This document shows positions 5,245 to 63,300 of a DNA stretch of 64,000 bases, piece after piece; the first letter of the stretch is position 1; the number at the start of each line of letters is the position of its first letter. The DNA lies in NCBI GenBank assembly GCA_964016885.1, contig OZ024743.1, forward strand, positions 313,596,001 to 313,660,000. Reading direction: 5' to 3'. Both the position numbers and the translations under genes were made by a program. The stretch comes from Eledone cirrhosa (Eukaryota). Below the pieces are notes generated by a model. That model was not told the origin of the DNA. It searched no databases and saw only the letters and a list, made by a program, of their open reading frames with translations.

Positions 5245-5385
5245 ATGTTTATCCCGGGTCCTACAGTAACTAAGGTATTCAATACACAGCAGAGTATAAA
5301 TATTTAATATAGAAATCATCAGGGAGCCTGATGATTTCTCCCGAATGAAACAGTTCTAGTCCTGTAGAAACCATTCCTATATCGA
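5245..5385. mobile_element. Small fold-back fragment with HHR-like core; same family as 52337-52490
   Basis: AGAAATCATCAGG-GAG-CCTGATGATTTCT palindrome, then CTGATGA-TTTCTCCCGAAT-GAAA-CAGTTCTAGTC. The 5' strand of stem I is not identifiable. Confidence 0.5.
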
Positions 5386-5444: not shown

Positions 5445-6015
5445 ATAGTGTTATTAAATGTTCGGTGAATCCATACGTACATATATGTATGTGTGCATGT
5501 ATGTATATATATATACATACTACTATACGTCTGTATACATATATGTATGTACGTATACATATATGTATGTACGTATACATACTTATATTTAAGTAACAGC
5601 CGTACTAAGAGTGAGAAATGAAATTTCGTTTAATTTTTTTCTGTTTATCGTTTTCGGTGCACCCGGCCGATTAACCCACTAGGATACGCAAATTAGGCTG
5701 CTCAGCCGTTAATATGCATAAGGAAAGTATATACTTTCAGACGTTCAATCATCTGGCAGGAAGGTATACGTTGCTGACGATAGCTAATAAGCTTGAAACT
5801 AGTACAGCGTTCCTTTGTCAGTGTTGAACAAATGAGCAACGATGGTTGCTAGACACTGTACGGCTTAATTCGGGATGTTTGTTTACAAATACACCGAGCA
5901 TTATAATAAATGTTCGGTGAATCCATACATACATATATGTATGTGTGCATGTATGTTTATATATATACATACTACTCTACGTCTGTATACATATATGTAC
6001 GTATACATACTTATA
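5445..6015 (+). mobile_element. Diverged partial-tandem copy (about 1.3 units) of the 466-bp HHR repeat family
   Basis: Shares TACTAAGAGTGAGAAATGAAATTTCG, CAAATTAGGCTGCTCAGCCGTTAAT, AGGAAAGTATATACTTTC and TGTCAGTGTTGAACAAA with the 45-48 kb array. Confidence 0.9.
5768..5810 (+). ncRNA. Type I hammerhead ribozyme (466-family variant)
   Basis: ACGTTG-CTGACGA-T-AGCT-AATA-AGCT-T-GAAA-CTAG-TA-CAGCGT. Confidence 0.88.
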
Positions 6016-44598: not shown

Positions 44599-44634
<36 letters not shown>

Positions 44635-44870
44635 AGTATGCATGTATACGTACATACATATATGTATACAGACGTACAGTAGCATGCACATATATATATA
44701 CACATACATATATACATACACATGCATACAGGTACACATACATATATGCACGTATCAGTTTAGCGGCGCTAACGTCGCTTTGTTCGTTTGTAAACAAACT
44801 GAACAGCCTGAATTTATGCCATACGGTGTTAAGGCAACCACGTCACCTTTTTGTTCAACACTGACACAGG

Positions 44871-44915
44871 AACGATGTACTAGTTTCAAGCTTGTTAGCT
44901 ATCATCAGCACCGTT
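44871..44915 (-). ncRNA. Type I hammerhead (inverted copy of the 466-bp unit)
   Basis: Reverse complement of 45368-45412. Confidence 0.92.
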
Positions 44916-45367
44916 TACCCATCTGCCAGATAGTTGAACGTTCGAAAGTATATACTTTCCTTATGAAAATTAACGGCTGAGCAGCCTAATTTGCATATTG
45001 AGTGAGTTAAATCGGTCAGGCATACCGAAAACGATAAATTGAAACAAAATGAAAACGAAATTTCATTTCTCACTCTTAGTATGGCACTTACTTAAATGTA
45101 AGTATGCATGTATACGTACATACATATATGTATACAGACGTACAGTAGCATATATATATGTATGTACGTATACATGCATACTTACATTTAAGTAAGTGCC
45201 ATACTAAGAGTGAGAAATGAAATTTCGTTTTCATTTTGTTTCAATTTATCGTTTTCGGTATGCCTGACCGATTTAACTCACTCAATATGCAAATTAGGCT
45301 GCTCAGCCGTTAATTTTCATAAGGAAAGTATATACTTTCGAACGTTCAACTATCTGGCAGATGGGTA

Positions 45368-45412
45368 AACGGTGCTGATGATAGCTAACAAGCTTGAAAC
45401 TAGTACATCGTT
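45368..45412 (+). ncRNA. Type I hammerhead; identical copies start at 45834, 46300, 46766, 47232 and 47698
   Basis: AACGGTG-CTGATGA-T-AGCT-AACA-AGCT-T-GAAA-CTAG-TA-CATCGTT. Stem I is 7 bp, stem III is the palindrome ACTAGT, predicted cleavage after GUA at 45405. Confidence 0.93.
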
Positions 45413-48104
45413 CCTGTGTCAGTGTTGAACAAAAAGGTGACGTGGTTGCCTTAACACCGTATGGCATAAATTCAGGCTGTTCAGTTTGTTTACAAACGAA
45501 CAAAGCGACGTTAGCGCCGCTAAACTGATACGTGCATATATGTATGTGTACCTGTATGCATGTGTATGTATATATGTATGTGTATATATATATGTGCATG
45601 CTACTGTACGTCTGTATACATATATGTATGTACGTATACATGCATACTTACATTTAAGTAAGTGCCATACTAAGAGTGAGAAATGAAATTTCGTTTTCAT
45701 TTTGTTTCAATTTATCGTTTTCGGTATGCCTGACCGATTTAACTCACTCAATATGCAAATTAGGCTGCTCAGCCGTTAATTTTCATAAGGAAAGTATATA
45801 CTTTCGAACGTTCAACTATCTGGCAGATGGGTAAACGGTGCTGATGATAGCTAACAAGCTTGAAACTAGTACATCGTTCCTGTGTCAGTGTTGAACAAAA
45901 AGGTGACGTGGTTGCCTTAACACCGTATGGCATAAATTCAGGCTGTTCAGTTTGTTTACAAACGAACAAAGCGACGTTAGCGCCGCTAAACTGATACGTG
46001 CATATATGTATGTGTACCTGTATGCATGTGTATGTATATATGTATGTGTATATATATATGTGCATGCTACTGTACGTCTGTATACATATATGTATGTACG
46101 TATACATGCATACTTACATTTAAGTAAGTGCCATACTAAGAGTGAGAAATGAAATTTCGTTTTCATTTTGTCTCAATTTATCGTTTTCGGTATGCCTGAC
46201 CGATTTAACTCACTCAATATGCAAATTAGGCTGCTCAGCCGTTAATTTTCATAAGGAAAGTATATACTTTCGAACGTTCAACTATCTGGCAGATGGGTAA
46301 ACGGTGCTGATGATAGCTAACAAGCTTGAAACTAGTACATCGTTCCTGTGTCAGTGTTGAACAAAAAGGTGACGTGGTTGCCTTAACACCGTATGGCATA
46401 AATTCAGGCTGTTCAGTTTGTTTACAAACGAACAAAGCGACGTTAGCGCCGCTAAACTGATACGTGCATATATGTATGTGTACCTGTATGCATGTGTATG
46501 TATATATGTATGTGTATATATATATGTGCATGCTACTGTACGTCTGTATACATATATGTATGTACGTATACATGCATACTTACATTTAAGTAAGTGCCAT
46601 ACTAAGAGTGAGAAATGAAATTTCGTTTTCATTTTGTTTCAATTTATCGTTTTCGGTATGCCTGACCGATTTAACTCACTCAATATGCAAATTAGGCTGC
46701 TCAGCCGTTAATTTTCATAAGGAAAGTATATACTTTCGAACGTTCAACTATCTGGCAGATGGGTAAACGGTGCTGATGATAGCTAACAAGCTTGAAACTA
46801 GTACATCGTTCCTGTGTCAGTGTTGAACAAAAAGGTGACGTGGTTGCCTTAACACCGTATGGCATAAATTCAGGCTGTTCAGTTTGTTTACAAACGAACA
46901 AAGCGACGTTAGCGCCGCTAAACTGATACGTGCATATATGTATGTGTACCTGTATGCATGTGTATGTATATATGTATGTGTATATATATATGTGCATGCT
47001 ACTGTACGTCTGTATACATATATGTATGTACGTATACATGCATACTTACATTTAAGTAAGTGCCATACTAAGAGTGAGAAATGAAATTTCGTTTTCATTT
47101 TGTTTCAATTTATCGTTTTCGGTATGCCTGACCGATTTAACTCACTCAATATGCAAATTAGGCTGCTCAGCCGTTAATTTTCATAAGGAAAGTATATACT
47201 TTCGAACGTTCAACTATCTGGCAGATGGGTAAACGGTGCTGATGATAGCTAACAAGCTTGAAACTAGTACATCGTTCCTGTGTCAGTGTTGAACAAAAAG
47301 GTGACGTGGTTGCCTTAACACCGTATGGCATAAATTCAGGCTGTTCAGTTTGTTTACAAACGAACAAAGCGACGTTAGCGCCGCTAAACTGATACGTGCA
47401 TATATGTATGTGTACCTGTATGCATGTGTATGTATATATGTATGTGTATATATATATGTGCATGCTACTGTACGTCTGTATACATATATGTATGTACGTA
47501 TACATGCATACTTACATTTAAGTAAGTGCCATACTAAGAGTGAGAAATGAAATTTCGTTTTCATTTTGTTTCAATTTATCGTTTTCGGTATGCCTGACCG
47601 ATTTAACTCACTCAATATGCAAATTAGGCTGCTCAGCCGTTAATTTTCATAAGGAAAGGATATACTTTCGAACGTTCAACTATCTGGCAGATGGGTAAAC
47701 GGTGCTGATGATAGCTAACAAGCTTGAAACTAGTACATCGTTCCTGTGTCAGTGTTGAACAAAAAGGTGACGTGGTTGCCTTAACACCGTATGGCATAAA
47801 TTCAGGCTGTTCAGTTTGTTTACAAACGAACAAAGCGACGTTAGCGCCGCTAAACTGATACGTGCATATATGTATGTGTACCTGTATGCATGTGTATGTA
47901 TATATGTATGTGTATATATATATGTGCATGCTACTGTACGTCTGTATACATATATGTATGTACGTATACATGCATACTTACATTTAAGTAAGTGCCATAC
48001 TAAGAGTGAGAAATGAAATTTCGTTTTCATTTTGTTTCAATTTATATATATATATATATATATATAAACATAAGTCAATTGAATGAACTCATAATCCTTT
48101 ATTT

Positions 48105-48160
48105 ACTGCTATATATATTTCGATGATAGCCATTGAATGGCTATGACCTCATCAGGCAGT
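48105..48160 (-). ncRNA. Type I hammerhead ribozyme
   Basis: ACTGC-CTGATGA-GGTCATAGCCAT-TCA-ATGGCTATCATC-GAAA-TATATA-TA-GCAGT. Confidence 0.85.
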
Positions 48161-49074
48161 TAGTCAGTTCTTAGATATGCCAGCTCTGTGTGTATAGTGT
48201 TGATGGTATCAGAGCCTTGGGACATATGAGCTTGTTAGGAATATTTTGATGTTGTCAGCAGGAATAGTCTTGATTCTCATTGGTCAGTTTGTAGATGGTA
48301 GTAGGTTGGTATTTGACCTCAAAGAGGCAGGTGGTTCTGTAAGGTTCAAACCATCAGGCAAGATGACAATAGTTCCACATGACTGATTTTCACAAAAGGC
48401 AATCTTGGTCAGATATATTTTCAAATAAGGTTAATAGTATGAAATAGATACTACAGGTCATTCTTAAATTGAGGAATTTATGTGGAGTGATGCTACTGAA
48501 AATTATGGTTGGAGTAGAAGGTTTACAAATAAAAAGGCTTATGTAGGTTAGCTTGCACTACACTCACACACACTTCCACACATACAAAAAGTGGGGTGGT
48601 AATACTTAATATAATGGTTAGAGTCCAATACTTAGATAGTTTAGAAAATTTAGAAATAAAGGGTTTATGCTGGTACAATTGTACATACACTCACACCTAC
48701 CCCTCAAACACTCACACATCTACACACACAAATCCATACAGGTGTGTGTATATATATATGCATGCATGCATGTACGCACAAGTATACACACATATATATA
48801 TATAAAATATATATATACACAGAACATACATATATATAAAATATATACATACAAAAATATAAAAAAATATATATATACATAGAATGCACACACACACACA
48901 AAATATATACACACGTAAAACATACATATATATATATATAAAAATACACACACACATACACACATATATATATAAAATATATACATACAGATACGCACAC
49001 ATATATAAAAAATACGCATACATAGACATATAAAATACACATATATATACACATGATACATATATACATATATA

Positions 49075-51025
49075 TATAAAATCAGGTTCAATAAAACATT
49101 GTTTAGATGACTCCTAACCAGTAGAGGATCCGGTGGACCATCCACCATAAGGACCGCAAACCATGGGTGGTTTTGTTGTCTATTGGTCATTGGTACAGGG
49201 TGTAGGGGACGTACCGGGGGGGGGCTGCGGGAGGCCGTAACCGGGGTTTATCCATATAGCTTGAGGAAAGTTCCCGACCTTAGGTGTCTGCAGGCACCGA
49301 ATAAGTCGGCCCTTCTGTTTAATAGCTTGGTTCCGCCATGAAGAATCTCGAGTGTCTCACTAAGACAGAGGTTGCAAATACCAGACCCGCCTCTCTCTGA
49401 GGGAACCTTTCTAACCACGGACCAGACCAGAGAGTGCGGGGTCTTTTCAAGTTTGAGCTTCCAGATCAGTTTATAAAGGGCCGTACATTTCCTCTTATCT
49501 ATTCCGTGAAAGGAATGGCGATGGTTATACCACCGAGCTTTGAAGCTCGTCGCTGTGGATCCTATGTAGTGGTGCTCCGAGTTAGAGGTTATGACCTTGC
49601 ACCTGTAGACCACGTTTTTGGTCATGCATTCGCGTGGTTAGCATCACTCGGGATTGGCTGGGTAGCCTCCGCAATCAGCACAGGGTCGTTGAGTTCCGGT
49701 GTACTAGTTGGGCCTGTCCGGGTTCCGCTGCGTCCCGCGTGCTGGTTCTGTTGGGTGGCTCCAGGGTTTACGGTGGTATTAGAGGCAGTGAGCCTATTCC
49801 TATTTATGCCAGCTATGTGCTGCGCTACGGAGCGTGTGGTTGAGTAGGAAAGTTTCACCGTGTGCCTGTTGAATAATTTATGGTACTTATGGGCCCTAGG
49901 AAACATATATCCAGTACTCTAAAGAATGTTCTAGCCAGGCTGGTACGTAGACCCACCGAGTACGGAGGGTTATACCATGTGACCTTCCTGGTCCTATTCT
50001 TGCGGGGTTGTTGGGTGTTCGCCGTGGGCCATTGCGTGGTTGTGCACAGCTCAGGTCGAGCTCGGTTGGTGTCACTTGGGTGTGCGGAGCGGTAACTATA
50101 ATGAGGGTTATACAGGCCCACCGTGGGGTTATAAACCTGCGAGGTGCGGCCTCCCTGCTCAATTAGGATTCGGCGGGTGGTGGGGCCGGTGAAGGGGTGC
50201 CTATGCTCCGCAGCACAATGGTCTTCAGCGTTGTAGGTATTAGACCGGTGGCGTATGCGGGACCTTCTACCGGTTGTGGTGACGGATAGGGGTCTGGGAG
50301 TGTTACTACCGGTCATGGAGGTATTAGGTGGGCCGAGACCTGCCCCTGAGGGTTTGGTTCGGGGTATCCTTGGGTCATCTCGATCATGTCCCTTAGGGTT
50401 ATAGCTGATCCTATCGCTGTGGGACACCTTAGCTAGAGCTGAGTTATAGTAGTCAGCGTTACTATTGAAGATCTCTTCATTGGCTGACAAGTTAGAGATC
50501 CTGTCATAGACACTCTTAACTACGGCCTTAACTATAGATCTAGGGTGGTTAGACTCAGCCTTGTTATACATCAGCTTCTCATTGGGTTTATGATATGGGT
50601 GGTGTAGCTTGGTGTTGATGGTGGTGTCCAGGAAATTCACTACTTTTCTATTGGGTTCCATCTCTACCTTAAGTCCTACCTTGCTAAAGAAGTGCCTAAT
50701 TCCCATCTTCATACTATCGACCATTGTGGTGCTGTGGTCCACTACGGTGAAGAGTGCGTCGTCTCGGTACAGACCGCCGCCCAGGTTGGGTATTTCTATC
50801 CTGATCTCGTAGAGTATGTATATCCCAACCAAGTCCGTTAGCTGCGCGGAGTCACTGGAGCCCATTGTAATGTCAAAATTATTTGGCCAGTCGCTCCGGG
50901 TCCATATATCCCCACCGAATCGGATCAGGGTCTTTCTGGCGGCGTGTATGATTCGAACCTCGTCGCGTGTTAGGTCTGTCCTATTCATCGCGAATATGAG
51001 TGCCTTGTTCAGGACTATGGGCATA
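49075..51025 (-). pseudogene. 5'-truncated PLE family C (Naiad-like by motif pattern): RT C-terminal half plus GIY-YIG, frameshifted
   Basis: FDITMGSSDSAQLTDLVGIYIL, GLYRDD, NFLD, PYHKP, SNHP, WYNPPYS, NVVY...YIGST, CNLCLSE...LLNRR...CRH. Confidence 0.92.
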
Positions 51026-51304
51026 TATATATGCATACAGGCTTATAGCCGGACAACCAACAAGAACAAAAACAAAATAAAATTACACCTAAATACCTAT
51101 CTTGAATGTATATCAAATACTTGTTACACAACGACTCTTATGTCTTTGAAATGTACATAACGGATGATGTATTAAACTGAATATATATACTTGATATCGT
51201 CTCTTATTCTTTTAATAATATTGACATTTCATCTGATATCATATTGGTAATACCTTTTGGTACATACGTGGTGATTGCTTATGTAACCAGTAATCAGTTT
51301 ATGG

Positions 51305-51374
<70 letters not shown>

Positions 51375-51465
51375 AGTATGTGTTCGTTGTTTATCAACAC
51401 CTCAGTATGCAGGCTGGAGCACTCGACGAAGTACGCAGGTTGGTTTGTTTACTCCGGAATAATGT

Positions 51466-51889
51466 AAAATAGGTAAGTCAAACATGTTAAATTTGGCTTC
51501 GTTTATTATAAATTCTCTGCTATATATATTTCAGTGACAGCTATTATTAGCTGTGACCTCATCAGGCAGCACGAATTAAAGTAGAAAAAACAGGTAAACA
51601 TGGTGTTGAAATGTTTTCCACTGTCAATTCATCGAAATCGGTGTGCTGTTAGTACTCCGAGGAACTGTAAATATATGATTCCAGTTCCTCGGAGGACTAT
51701 CAGCACACCCATATCGATGAATTGACAGAGTGGAACACATTTCAACACCATGTTTACCTGTTTTTTTCTACATTAATTCATTCGTACTGCCTGATGAGAT
51801 CACAGCCAAAAATAGCTGTCACTGAAATATATATACCAGAGGATTTATAATAAACGAAGCCAAATTTAACATGTTTAACTTACTTATTT

Positions 51890-55985: not shown

Positions 55986-56281
55986 TCTCTCCTTCCTCTT
56001 CTTGTAAGCCTTTTCACCGCTCACATATATGTATATATAAGCGTGATGCGTATGCATAAGTATCAAGTGGTGGCATTACTCGAAACTGAGTTGCAGCTAT
56101 CATCATATATACATATAGAATTTGGATATAATGCTCTGAAATAACGATATATATGTGAAGACAAACATAGAATATTCGAAAATATTCTGTATGTTTATAA
56201 TAAACATTTCGAAGACCCAATCGCTATAGAATAGAATACGTCACGTATTACAATTTGAGATACTCGATAAAAGCAAGGGAA

Positions 56282-56324
56282 GTAACCTACGCGTTTCATT
56301 CTTATTAGAAATCATCAGGATTAC
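56282..56324 (-). ncRNA. Type I hammerhead (312-bp unit, left arm)
   Basis: Reverse complement of 56808-56850. Confidence 0.9.
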
Positions 56325-56807
56325 ATATCCAGTGCTTTTATCGAGAATGACACAGCTAGAGACTTATAGAATACTTAGCTGTGTACAGGAACTGGTTTGA
56401 AAGAGCGGTTGCCGGTCCGACAGAAATTAGAATTTGGATATAATGCTCTGAAATAGCGATATATATGTGAAGACAAACATAGAATATTCGAAAATATTCT
56501 GTATGTTTATAATAAACATTTCGAAGACCCAATCGCTATAGAATAGCTTTTATCGAGAATCTCAAATTGTAATACGTGACGTATTCTATTCTATAGCGAT
56601 TGGGTCTTCGAAATGTTTATTATAAACATACAGAATATTTTCGAATATTCTATGTTTGTCTTCACATATATATCGCTATTTCAGAGCATTATATCCAAAT
56701 TCTAATTTCTGCCGGACCGGCAACCGCTCTTTCAAACCAGTTCCTGTACACAGCTAAGTATTCTATAAGTCTCTAGCTGTGTCATTCTCGATAAAAGCAC
56801 TGGATAT

Positions 56808-56850
56808 GTAATCCTGATGATTTCTAATAAGAATGAAACGCGTAGGTTAC
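56808..56850 (+). ncRNA. Type I hammerhead (312-bp unit, right arm)
   Basis: GTAATC-CTGATGA-T-TTCT-AATA-AGAA-T-GAAA-CGCG-TA-GGTTAC; stem III is the palindrome ACGCGT. Confidence 0.9.
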
Positions 56851-56998
56851 TTCCCTTGCTTTTATCGAGAATCTCAAATTGTAATACGTGACGTATTCTA
56901 TTCTATAGCGATTGGGTCTTCGAAATGTTTATTATAAACATACAGAATATTTTCGAATATTCTATGTTTGTCTTCATATATACATATGTTTATCTTTG

Positions 56999-57395: not shown

Positions 57396-57516
57396 TTGAA
57401 TTTCGTATTTCTAAAGAAATACGGTATGTTTATAAATAATCAATTAGTAACTCATAGCTGTGAATAACACAGGCAGCCAATGCCATCAAGCGGTGTTCGT
57501 CAGAAGCAAGGGAGAC

Positions 57517-57562
57517 AATCGTCGATGCATTTCGAACTCGATTAGTTCTCGTCAGGATGATC
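57517..57562 (-). ncRNA. Type I hammerhead ribozyme
   Basis: GATCATC-CTGACGA-GAACT-AATCG-AGTTC-GAAA-TGCA-TC-GACGATT. Canonical G-C closing pair on stem II; stem III is the palindrome ATGCAT. Confidence 0.88.
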
Positions 57563-57759
57563 CCTCCTGCTGTTATTCATAGTCCTATGGACTGACTGCT
57601 CCTACCCTTGGATATTTCTACCAAACTTGTATGACGGTAAGCAACTCTAGAAGGTTATTGTGACCAGCAGATTAATATACGAGTGTACGATTGGCAAACC
57701 CCTCTCTGCTGTTGATCGCTCTATATATCCGAGCACCCGACACAACGTGAAGATGGACC

Positions 57760-59820
57760 TCCATGAGATTATTCCCTGAAGTATATACCGACCCTTTCAC
57801 GCTGGAGTTACTCTAAATTCATACTCCATAAATTTGAAGATGTGGTCACGCGTTTGAGATGGAGAGCATTTGTCTTTCATGGAATGCTGTCAATTAATGT
57901 CAATATTTTTCAACATCAAGTCTAGAAAGTATCCACCTAATGTAATTAAACTCGCTAGCTTTAAGACTGATCTCAGCATCGTTGTTTACATTTCTTTCCG
58001 CAAGCACTCCAATTCTTTTCAAAACAAAATAAGTAGAGACATTACAAAACTTCAGATCCTCTGTTAGAACGTTCGTCCTATCTGATAAAACCAACAACCT
58101 ATATTCATTATATAAGCAAAATAGAAAAAAAGTCACCCTGCTCCTTATTATGCCATCAATACTGAGGTGAAGGACATAGCCGCCGCCCTTAAAGTAGATA
58201 ACAAGTTAGAGTGCTGGCTAGATGATAGGCATATATTACCCTTAAGGACCATAAGGATGACTTTGCCAACAATCCAACTTGCAGGCTTATAAAGCCTGCC
58301 AAAACCGAGCTAGGTCTTGTTAGTAAGGATATCCTTGAAAATTAATATAGCCATTAGGAAACAGTTCAGCTTTTACCAGTAGGATAATAACCAAACCGTT
58401 ATAGATTGGTTTAATATCCTCAAACACACTAAGAAAGCTAGGTTTACACAATTTGACATTATTGACTTTTACCCCTCGATATCCAGGACATTACTTGATA
58501 AGGCCCTTGCTTTCACTACTAAATTTACTAACATAGATAGTTTGGACAGAGTATCATACCCCACTGCAGGGAAACCCTTCTCTTTAGCAACGGTGACCCG
58601 TGGATAAAAAACCCACTACCAATGACCTATTCGATGTACCAATGGGATCATTTGAAAGCGCCGATATATGCGATATGGTGGGCCTATTCATTCTAGACAC
58701 TATACAGAATAATTCCCTGATTTTATTACGGGCCTATATCACGATGATGGTCTGGCACTATCCAACCAGAAAAGTGGCCATGACCTGGACACCTTTAGGA
58801 AAAACTTAATCACTATCTTCAACAGGCTAGGTTTAAATATTTCGATTGCAACCAACCTCACCAATGTTAACTTCCTAGACGTTAACTTAGGCCTAGAGAC
58901 ATGCACATATAGACCATTCCACAAACCAAGTGAGAAAATCCAGTACATCCATAAGGACTATAGCCACCCACTATCATTTTTAAGAACCTCATTAACAATA
59001 TTAGTAAGAGAGTTTCTAACCTCTCCTCCAGCAAAGCCATCTTTGATAGGGAAGAACCCTACTATAATTCAGCACTAAGTGTCAGCGGCTTCTCTAATAA
59101 AATCACGTACTCTCCAGATCACCGCCCTACATCTAATGAGAAAAACCTAGACATAAATATGTCATATGTTTCGCACCGCCTTTCTTATTGAATGTTAAAA
59201 CTAATGTAGGTAAACAATTTCTAGGCCTCATAGATCTCCATTTTCCAGTTGGCCATAAATATCGAAAGATATTTAATCACCATACAGTAAAAATAGGATA
59301 CTTTTTCACTAACAATATTAAATCCTACATCAACGGCAAAAGCAAAAGCCCTCCAGCTCATGGATGCTCATGTAGAAGACTAGAAATATGCCCACTAAAC
59401 AAACAGTGCAACATTCCGGCGGTGAAATACAAAGCAGAGGTACCTCCACCAACCAGGACGACCAAATTGAAGCCTGGACCTATGTCGTTATGGCCGAGAG
59501 CCGGCTTAAAAACCCGGTACCTGAATCATGAAACAAATTTCACACATCTCGACAGAAAACATGTCACCCAGCTCGAAAATCGCGTATAGAGCCTCAATAA
59601 CAACAGCACGCCTTTTTCCATCAAATGGGCGATATTAGAAAGATCTACCACCTAGGTGAATGGGTCCAAATTTTGTCGACTTTCTAATTCTGAAGAATGG
59701 TATATACTCTCACAACTAGCTTCAGATAAACAATGCTCAACGTAGAGATTGATTGCGTTGGCAGCTATTTCATGAGAAGAAGTATATTTTGAGTAAATGG
59801 CTTAGACCTGATTAATAGGT
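57760..59820 (+). pseudogene. Decayed near full-length PLE family E (Naiad-like)
   Basis: [94 protein letters not shown]...CPLNKQC; many frameshifts. Confidence 0.92.
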
Positions 59821-60346: not shown

Positions 60347-63300
60347 GACTAAATGAAAATTTTTTATCCTGGTATTAGAATAGCCGAGCTTCTCAGGGGG
60401 TAATTCCATATATGGTAAAAATGATTGTCACAAGGATTGGTCAAAAGTTTGTTGTTGAGACATAATAATTCTATCATGGCAATTTGTGGAGGGAAGGGGT
60501 AGCTGAACCTCCCAGTAGAAGAAAGAGGAAGAGGGGGTGGAGGAAACCCAGTCATGCGTTGATAGTGCCATCTACAGCTGGGCAGGAGGTCAAAGAAGAT
60601 ACTAGGGAGGGGGAGGGGAAGGAAGTCGAAACAATAAGTGAAACAATATGGGGTAAAAATATAGAAAAATACCGAGAGTGTTAAAAAACGATTAAATTTA
60701 AAAAAAAAAAAACAATTTCTGGTTACTATAACCTAAGGACAGCTATCGAGTCTCTCACTGGTACTGCTAGACTAAAGAAAGGTTTACTAGGTGGGACGGA
60801 ATTATAATGAGACCCTTTTAAGAGGTATAAGTAAACAACCGAATATATCTTACGGTGACGGGTCAACAAGTGGGGGGCCAAAATACTAAAGAAACTACCA
60901 CTAAATAATAATTCAGAATCCCGAGACCAGTACGAAATAAAGGTTTCTGCCCCAGGCATAAGGCCAGCAACCACCCAGTGCAAAAAAAGAAAAACTAATA
61001 CGAAATAATAATTCAGAATCCCGAAAAAGAATACTAATACTATCTCTAAGGGTGCCGCCACGATACAAAAATTCTAGTGCAAACTACATAAATGCTCGTA
61101 CGAAGTATATGTAAAATTTGATACGGAAAATTAATTCGGAATCCCCCCCCTCCCCCAAAAAAATAAATACTGATATACGAGAAATTAAAGCAAAGGTACC
61201 ACTAAGAAATAGAGAAAGCACGGAAAAGGGGTAGCCATCGGATAAGAAGGCAAGTATCCGGGGTCTAACACATCTGCTATAAAAAGCGGAGTCGGCCAAA
61301 TCTATCATAAAATAGAGGAAAGGGTGGGGGTACTGAGGCTACAAAGGACCGAGGGGCTGCCTCGGGTGGGCGAGAAAGTAAAAAGGACGACCACAAAGAA
61401 AGAGGACTGGGGTGGAAGGACTAGGGAAGGATGGGGGGAAGAAGGAAATATAGAGGAAGCGATAAAAAGATATAAAAGAAGATCTTACGTCTACCTATGC
61501 AATCAGGGGTTACCCATTACAAAATCGGCAAGTGGGGTGTTATAGCCCTAGTCTACCCCCCGGTCATTATGGGGTTTGAGGGCGAGGTAAGTCCTACGCA
61601 ATCTGTGTTTACATGCAGTTACCAGTTCATCTTTCTTGTTTAGGAGTTGGTCCGTCGAAAACAGCATTTGTAAAGTTTCCTCCGAGCATAAATTGCACGG
61701 ACGGCTTCCTCCCGTGTAAGAGTTGGCTCTGGACAGTAAGCTCCAAGTGAGATCATAGGTAATATTGTTATCCTTGAGGCCTATATGTGGTCCGAAAGTG
61801 TAGTGGCGTGACGCCGGACCGGGTTTCGGATGGTATCTCTGTGTTGGTATAGCCGGGTCTTGAAGTCACATGCGGTTAATCCTATATAAGCTTTGTTGGA
61901 GGTGTCCGTCCTCACGTTGCACTGGTAGATCACATTACGATCTCTGCATCTGTTGTCGAGGGGGAAAATGGATCCATCAGGACAGTTGCACCTCCTGGTC
62001 GGCTCTCCACTGCTATTTAGGTTATTTCTTCCATAGGGATTGAGTTTTTTGTTGTTAGAGGAGACGATGTTTTGTGCAAAGTTTGGTGTAGCGCTGTAGG
62101 AGAGTTTGATGGTATTTTTGTTAATTATGTTGTGGTAGCGGTGTTGTAGTGGGAAGTGTTTTTCAATGAGCCTAAAGAAGATTTTCCCGATAGGAGTTGT
62201 CACCTCGGCGTTGTGGGGAGGATTGAACCATGTTACGTTGCGTGAGCGGCGGTGTCGCCTGCTGGTTCCGCTAATGGAAGCTGGACAGTAGGATATTTCC
62301 TCCCGGAAACCACTCCGCTTGAGGGCCTGGTTGTAATAAGGCGCATGTTCCTCGAATATCTGCTCATTAGCTGACAAACGAGATATGCGGAGGGAGATGT
62401 TTTTAACCAGGTTATTGGTGATGTTCCTAGGATGGTTTGACCGGCGGTGGATGTAGTGCAGGTTGTCGTTAGGTTTCCTGTATGGGTAGTACTGTCTTCC
62501 TGGCGTGGAGGATGATGTTTCTTTCCTGGTCGGTGATGGGCACAAGTGTTTCGGCGAAGTCCAAGGCAGCCGTAAGTAGCGGTAAGGTAATTGAAGCACA
62601 GTAACTCTCTATGTCAAACTGGATGAATTTCGTGTCTCGTTTTTCCTCCATATTGCTGAACCATGAGATTACTTCCTGGATGTTGACCTATAGGCTAAGT
62701 CTGGCGTGTTGCTTAACTTTTTTTTGGAGGGGGGGGGGGGGGGGGGGGGGATTCCGAATTAATTTTCAGTATCAAATTTTACATATACTTCGTACGAGCA
62801 TTTATGTAGTTTGCACTAGAATTTTTGTATCGTGGCGGCACCCTTAGAGATAGTATTAGTATTCTTTTTCGGGATTCTGAATTATTATTTCGTATTAGTT
62901 TTTCTTTTTTTGCACTGGGTGGTTGCTGGCCTTGTGCCTGCGGCAGAAACCTTTATTTCGTACTGGTCTCGGGATTCTGAATTATTATTTAGTGGTAGTT
63001 TCTTTAGTATTTTGGCCCCCCACTTGTTGACCCGTCACCGTAAGTAATATTCGGTTGTTTACTTATACCTCTTAAAAGGGTCTCATTATAATTCCGTCCC
63101 ACCTAGTAAACCTTTCTTTAGTCTAGCAGTACCAGTGAGAGACTTGATAGCTGTCCTTAGGTTATAGCAACCAGAAAATCTTTTTTTTTTTTTTTACATT
63201 TAATTGTTTTTTAACACTCTCGGTATTTTTCTATATTTACCCCATAATTGTTTCACTTATTGTTTCGACTTCCTTCCCCTCCCCCTCCCTAGTATCTTCT

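Follow-up and report, generated by a model that had tools for sequence, protein, structure and literature searches.

The window, that is, the whole stretch of 64,000 nucleotides of Eledone cirrhosa DNA that was analysed (contig OZ024743.1), contains two inverted arms of a short repeated unit, which lie head-to-head between two TSD copies. The unit was numbered from the predicted cleavage site of its hammerhead motif. The features of this locus are as follows.

56103..56116, plus strand: left TSD copy, a 14-nt match, the last base of which is common with the arm
56116..56546, minus strand: left arm, 431 nt, unit positions 54-312 followed by 1-172; its outer end is the long site B, tail included
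56116..56155, minus strand: tail, unit positions 133-172, found on the outer end of the left arm only; equal offset in 43 of 46 inverted loci
56260..56348, minus strand: left-arm hammerhead motif of type I, its stem I being extended; cleavage predicted after 56288
56546..56976, plus strand: right arm, 431 nt, unit positions 14-312 followed by 1-132; its outer end is the short site A
56547..56585, plus strand: 39-nt spacer without a mirror partner, unit positions 15-53, within the right arm beside the head-to-head junction at 56546
56665..56704, plus strand: internal copy of the segment from site A to site B in the right arm
56784..56872, plus strand: right-arm type I hammerhead motif with a 16-bp outer helix; predicted cut after 56844
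56808-56813/56845-56850 (stem I), 56814-56820 (core), 56821-56834 (stem II) and 56838-56843 (palindromic stem III), plus strand: pieces of the right-arm hammerhead
56974..56987, plus strand: right TSD copy, the first 3 nt of which are common with the unit

Both arms have a period of 312, and the inverted arms are 99% complementary, with the spacer of 39 nt and two internal differences between left and right. As an earlier note on this DNA had described, the unit is 312 bp long and each of the head-to-head arms exceeds one unit; both measure 431 nt (1.38 units), and their 5' ends meet with a 1-nt overlap. The duplication at the edges is 14 nt, or 10–14 bp once the overlap with the unit is allowed for. 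G or C accounts for 109 of the 312 bases of the unit (35%). No ORF of at least 90 aa was detected inside the element; two frames begin near its right end and run into a microsatellite. This copy has a single ribozyme in each arm and is predicted to yield no monomers.

Hammerhead motif and the 312 family

The hammerhead of each arm consists of stem I (GUAAUC/GGUUAC), CUGAUGA, a U.U mismatch, a 4-bp stem II, GAAA, ACGCGU and a GUA site, with the predicted cut after 56844 on the plus strand and after 56288 on the minus strand. The motif that had been proposed, with a 4-bp stem II, the palindromic stem III ACGCGU and a GUA site, is therefore present in both arms. Helix I has 6 bp plus an extension, in which stem I runs on through two small internal loops into the 16-bp helix (z -6.6). 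The exact 30-nt ribozyme core gave 619 matches in the genome and none for the reversed control, and the core matches are therefore not due to chance. The Rfam scan of the window returned no hammerhead family among the 150 listed of 194 matches; those listed were microRNA models, all under their gathering scores. The 312-nt circle is predicted to fold well (z -4.5; its complement, z -5.5), and cleavage is predicted to be most efficient in a ribozyme dimer, given the short palindromic stem III.

The first 100 of the 619 core matches occupy 34 places, which suggests about 200 loci of this family genome-wide. In total, 107 loci were analysed: 40 by identity rank, 26 in order along contig C1, one 310-nt variant and 40 picked by one end. 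The units are 95–100% identical, spread over many contigs and almost always within (TA)n runs, and the family is young. In 66 fetched loci, 226 hammerhead motifs with paired stems were found. The arms reach 7 units (up to 2241 nt); 86 of 115 arms are longer than 312 nt and 53 of 115 longer than 624 nt, so that two or more consecutive ribozyme-bearing units are present in the family and absent from the window copy.

An older sister family, 70–80% identical to the 312 unit and with 2,697 first-look candidates, was found in the same genome. In its copies (L148-L177; L130:3440-3880), stem III is longer than in the 312 unit and not palindromic, and the cleavage triplet is GUC or GUU. Between the two families, double changes occur at three pairs of stem I, two pairs of stem II and 4 of 13 pairs of the outer helix, which is 97–98% paired in register versus 39–70% when slid. 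The pairs were counted by anchoring, since a MAFFT alignment slipped by 3 nt after stem III. Only two lineages were compared, and the compensatory changes therefore represent few independent events. Within the 312 family, three locus-wide changes in stem I all keep the pairing. The ribozyme is not depleted of locus-wide variants, with 6 in its 43 nt versus 18 in the other 269 nt. By these paired changes, the hammerhead fold is conserved between the 312 unit and the sister family.

The window also contains an array of a 466-nt unit (44627-48045), in which the minus arm ends at 251 and the plus arm at 310, and a diverged relative of it (69–81%) near 5.5–6.0 kb (5473-6008). The 312 family had been described as independent, with no evident similarity to the 466 unit. 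This description stands outside the ribozyme, where nothing aligns, and does not hold within it: 21 of 26 nt match (E 0.007), and both units carry one hammerhead subtype with compensatory changes. A pattern covering this subtype gave 31,243 genome matches versus none in the controls. The two families thus appear, by alignment, to share a ribozyme scaffold and nothing else. All 19 single matches to this common ribozyme subtype proved to be 466-like repeats, and none of them had a PLE frame next to it in pLTR position.

Arm ends and the insertion footprint

The outer ends of the arms lie at two sites, A at about +132 and B at about +168 from the cleavage site, some 36 nt apart; ends were scored as A in the range 123–149 and as B in the range 159–175. 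The first 66 loci comprised 46 head-to-head loci, 19 single-armed loci (one of which hides a 17-nt B arm) and one rearranged locus. One A end was paired with one B end in 43 of the 46 head-to-head loci; in the other three, one arm ends elsewhere, and no locus had two ends alike (0/46). The same rule was seen in a prediction set of 40 further loci. When loci were picked by an A end, the partner was B in all 12 resolved cases, and when they were picked by a B end, the partner was A in 13 of 14, the remaining one ending in a TA run at 150. The complementary end was thus found in 25 of 26 resolved loci. The rest of the set consisted of four single-armed loci, nine that were rearranged or cut by the fetch edge, and one with two convergent arms. 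In the last of these (L230:1122-1972), two separate B-ending arms lie tail-to-tail over one TA run, an instance of repeated targeting of one microsatellite.

Site A lies beside a TA-like stretch of the unit and matches the TA target at 8 of 9 nt, while the match at site B is 1–2 nt. The inner 5' ends are scattered, and most head-to-head junctions overlap by a few bases. Even short arms of 17–75 nt that face multi-unit arms end at the complementary site (L051, L033). The core of the A-to-B segment (56673-56689, unit positions 141-157) reads identically in the printed copies of the sister family, and this core is a candidate enzyme-binding element. Of the 46 loci examined, the window locus alone shows a clear TSD of non-simple sequence; elsewhere a TSD is hard to discern because most flanks are (TA)n.

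Insertions of endonuclease-bearing PLEs are described as partial tandems with an adjacent inverted 5'-truncated copy, a tail of 30–40 bp at one end and a bias for (TA)n or microsatellites (PMC8557442), and an inverted pLTR that carries a tail of 31 bp, together with a TSD of 9 bp, has been reported (PMC3846280). The 312 family has a tail of about 36 nt at one end only, an AT-rich or (TA)n target and an inverted 5'-truncated copy placed head-to-head. As in the PLEs of these two papers, the TSD is near 10 bp. By this analogy, the inverted arms and the tail correspond to the known PLE insertion signature. The 312 unit differs from the endonuclease PLEs described there in that it has no ORF and is the whole element, and in that the rule of one short and one long end, counted here, is optional there. 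The same papers mention putative non-autonomous multicopy head-to-tail derivatives of PLEs, such as MRC1.

The footprint was also found in other families of this genome. Homologous sites bound the arms in 10 of 13 inverted loci of the sister family; one of its loci with a scripted score of two A ends (L156) is a compound locus, with an A and B pair plus another arm. In the 466 family, the ends lie at 251 and 310 in 5 of 6, and the design that had been claimed to be equal in the two units is thus borne out. A young coding PLE of 4.2 kb, with frames of about 890 aa, copies mostly 93–99% identical and 4,092 exact ribozyme matches, has one short and one long end in every two-armed copy (9 of 9), the tail measuring about 100 nt. 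Copies of this PLE (L083:3304-7512, with an 893-aa frame; L082-L096) form 1.x-unit tandems and inverted arms. The inverted partial-tandem architecture is the standard footprint of PLEs, occurs in a coding PLE of the same genome and is not a property of a ribozyme replicon. Because Pfam did not recognise the RT (one weak GIY-YIG match, E 0.003, was obtained), the PLE label of these RT sequences is presumptive and is taken from their motif layout.

Template and mode of insertion

Variants were mostly uniform across a locus (73 of 80 polymorphic site-by-locus cases), and both arms carried the variant in 27 of 30 cases, as compared with a mean of 3.2 after arm shuffling. There were 106 locus-wide events (24 distinct changes), 18 partly shared variants and 184 variants of single units. 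Thirteen of the locus-wide changes are private to one locus, and 10 of the 13 span both arms. Since two RNAs should often give like ends together with unlike haplotypes, the data favour the origin of each insertion from one RNA molecule. Mosaic templates or later changes at the DNA level are evident from the 18 variants that are partly shared, some of which recur with a period of two units (L039). In the plus arm of L039, in L033 and in L059, variants recur every two or four units, and dimeric templates or later duplication of unit blocks are suggested. The mutation spectra of locus-wide and single-unit variants showed a borderline difference (p 0.06). A-to-I editing as the general source of the locus-wide variants was rejected, as there was no strand excess among the 13 private changes (4 A>G and 4 T>C).

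An arm of more than one unit requires a template that is circular or multimeric. This part of the earlier proposal was supported by the arm lengths, and the 5' ends were not piled at the cleavage site (9 of 115 observed versus 9.2 expected), on which ground cleaved linear monomers were rejected as templates. We lean to a ligated 312-nt circle copied by rolling, and an uncut multimeric transcript has a nearly even chance. The presence of a private change in all units of a locus is explained by a circular template and equally by a transcript that reads through a homogeneous donor array. An Anolis PLE inserts from uncut RNA in vitro, without a strand difference in the start site (PMC11167929).

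The cleavage-site nucleotide itself varies. GUG stands in place of GUA at all junctions of L061 (3 of 3) and at 5 of 6 junctions of L045. By the NHH rule, a GUG triplet should not cleave, and cleavage may therefore not be needed. This A-to-G change at unit position 312 recurs in L045, L061, L039 and L111 on differing haplotypes, often in some units only, and lies in a UAG context at a helix end. UAG is a favoured context for editing. Editing, misreading at the ligation point and selection for uncut RNA are possible sources of the change.

We consider it likely that the 312 unit is a non-LTR retrozyme mobilised in trans by a PLE, with both strands of the (TA)n nicked and the RT primed twice on one RNA. 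The PLE enzyme would nick both strands of the (TA)n target, and each nicked strand would prime one arm, one at site A and the other at site B. Both cDNAs would extend back past the ribozyme site and cover as many as 7 units, and the two 5'-truncated cDNAs would then be joined by microhomology. A more specific version, which we put forward tentatively, is that a PLE RT dimer primes one ribozyme-made 312-nt circle twice, from the two nicked strands, at programmed sites on either side of a conserved element, with both subunits rolling and with the young coding PLE as the helper. If this is true, the loci would be genomic proof of retrozyme circles as PLE templates, and one mechanism would account for the tandem, the inversion and the tail of PLEs together.

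Self-priming is an unlikely alternative to two primings. A single cDNA would snap back into a hairpin, an endonuclease would trim one tail, and later unequal exchange would change the unit number. Published proposals attribute PLE inversions to self-priming (PMC3846280) and the tail to resolution by an endonuclease (PMC8557442), and such a fold-back would explain the shared haplotypes directly. Taken alone, the window locus is compatible with a complete hairpin that lost the tail on one side by trimming, and loops of 0–9 nt occur at 5 of 42 junctions. The register of a complete hairpin was seen in 18 of 40 loci (L049 and L117, with broken alignments, and L120 were left out). However, shuffled arms give this register about as often (16.8, p 0.40), and in the other 22 loci there is a difference of additional whole units. 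The loops are uniformly distributed in size (KS p 0.67), and the very short arms opposite multi-unit arms keep the complementary site, while in a hybrid locus described below (L032/L178) the two arms are different sequences. In 12 of 42 loci, a fold-back would be excluded by tail length alone, and these loci are therefore not counted as an argument against it. The arm lengths are uncorrelated (rho -0.17, p 0.27, n = 42), and a correlation as expected from two enzymes running for equal time was not found. Because the register is not enriched, the lengths are uncorrelated, the loops are uniform and the very short arms obey the complementary site, the comparison of arms favours two separate priming events, unless arrays change their unit number freely after insertion.

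Relation to coding PLEs and to known retrozymes

A BLASTN-type check of whether the unit ever occurs as the pLTR of a coding PLE had been suggested, and no such case was found in the 107 loci. Using seven protein pieces from the PLEs of this genome as queries (six for the first 40 loci), no PLE coding sequence in pLTR geometry was detected beside the unit in 66 loci read over 9 kb and in 40 read over 3 kb, although distant PLE clades may escape such queries. The nearest PLE coding matches lie 173–309 nt off and are separated from the unit by TA runs or lie past its 3' end (as in L116), and upstream of a 312 unit is another unit. No homology was detected between the unit and the two related PLE families that were fetched, the young PLE included (best E 0.25). 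One locus, L130, was considered as a possible upstream pLTR and rejected, since no ORF follows. A short stretch of this locus near 2340-2430 on the minus strand resembles a U6 snRNA copy.

The ribozymes also differ. PLE-type minimal hammerheads have a long helix II and a short helix I (PMC4209133), and the ribozyme of the young coding PLE has a long helix II, unlike the 4-bp helix II of the 312 unit. From its helix lengths (6/4/1–2 bp), the 312 ribozyme is assigned to the canonical retrozyme type and not to the minimal type of PLE termini.

A direct contact with a coding PLE was seen in one hybrid locus (L032/L178; L178:692-5983) on a 31-kb unplaced contig. A 312 arm of 3.2 units with an A end is fused head-to-head, without a gap, to a truncated pLTR followed by a whole young PLE, and both outer ends are of the short type and lie on TA runs. 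This locus may be one insertion from two RNAs, in which case it would name the helper, or it could be a deletion or misassembly. No further hybrid was found among the four single-arm loci resolved in the 40 new loci.

It is very unlikely, in our estimation, that the unit is the pLTR of an unsampled coding PLE family, the loci being truncated stumps later amplified as DNA tandem repeats. Truncated PLE ends do leave the identical footprint of inversion and tail, 24 of the 57 retrozyme families of Xenopus have matches to known elements, which are PLEs in nearly every case (10.64898/2026.07.22.740005), and in this genome of 3.0 Gb, 150 of 34,754 PLE RT candidates were scored. Against such stumps stand the lack of PLE coding sequence in pLTR geometry at the distances given above and the canonical ribozyme; moreover, local amplification of DNA would not put one haplotype in both inverted arms, although a homogeneous donor array could. 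An assembly artefact or satellite DNA without retrotransposition (from fold-back chimeric reads or a DNA rolling circle) is hardly credible: near-perfect palindromes and tandem arrays are hard to assemble, and 5 of the first 40 loci are on small contigs or without a check against reads, but chimeric reads cannot be the source of fixed complementary 3' ends, a TSD, arm-specific substitutions and one rule in four unrelated or distant families.

The retrozyme-like character that had been assigned to the family was supported, in that every sequence-level feature of metazoan non-LTR retrozymes that was tested was found. As in the retrozymes described by Cervera and de la Pena in 2020 (PMC7229834), the unit is a non-coding tandem repeat of 150–450 bp with low GC and a type I hammerhead, which has a short palindromic helix III and an axolotl-like U.U mismatch at the base of helix II; a TSD of more than 4 bp, coexisting PLEs and a well-folded circle (predicted here) are also common to both. 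Cleavage and circles were shown by experiment for those elements, whereas the 312 family is known here from sequence. It is likely a non-autonomous member of this group. The earlier terms "replicon" and coexisting "ribozyme replicon families" are overstated, because a unit without coding capacity would depend on the enzyme of a PLE.

The dependence of retrozymes on PLEs has already been proposed (PMC7229834) and argued (10.64898/2026.07.22.740005). In the former, the PLE helper was proposed from shared traits, and the word "inverted" is absent from the main text, whereas the 312 loci display the footprint of inverted arms and tail directly. In the latter, by Li, Clavereau and Pollet, the evidence described is co-occurrence and pLTR homology, and the terms "tail" and "head-to-head" do not occur in its text. 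The amphibian units there are of similar size (mean 316 bp) and likewise PLE-dependent. Their tandems are ascribed to local DNA amplification, whereas the 312 arrays look born as multimers in both arms, and unlike for those families, no pLTR homologue was found for the 312 unit in the two PLE families compared. An active copy is defined there by at least two consecutive ribozyme-bearing units, and 8 of 9 Xenopus elements did not cleave.

A biochemical parallel is the purified Anolis Poseidon protein PAc, which cleaves both target strands, extends them and begins reverse transcription at two internal RNA positions on either side of the tail (PMC11167929). For PAc, as in the mechanism proposed for the 312 unit, two internal RT starts downstream of the ribozyme cut bound the tail, the target is AT-rich and both strands are extended; the PAc protein is predicted to be a dimer. 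Unlike the 312 unit, PAc is coding and is reported to prime without target homology, whereas site A matches the TA target. The bulk assay with PAc, as described, could not pair the two starts of one event.

In the Creative Commons literature of PubMed Central and bioRxiv, which leaves subscription papers and supplements outside its scope, no report of a tail or of paired ends was found for any retrozyme. The enzyme that moves animal retrozymes and the way in which PLEs make tandems, inversions and tails are described as open questions (PMC7229834, PMC8557442, PMC11167929). What the 312 family adds is the PLE insertion footprint itself on a retrozyme, counted over many loci. The family is valuable as a test system, with a short template, two mapped starts, a strict rule of one of each and haplotypes that mark the template. 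With the young, near-intact PLE as a candidate helper, both questions are directly testable in the published in vitro PLE assay.

Other PLE-related sequences surround the element in the window. At least three degraded PLE copies of different families lie at 48045-51700 (minus strand), 57440-59600 (plus strand) and 61500-62600 (minus strand), and ribozyme motifs have cut sites at 48110, 51521 and 57524, all on the minus strand. Further hammerhead-like motifs of other types were found at 333-382 and at about 5323-5345, the second one back-to-back.
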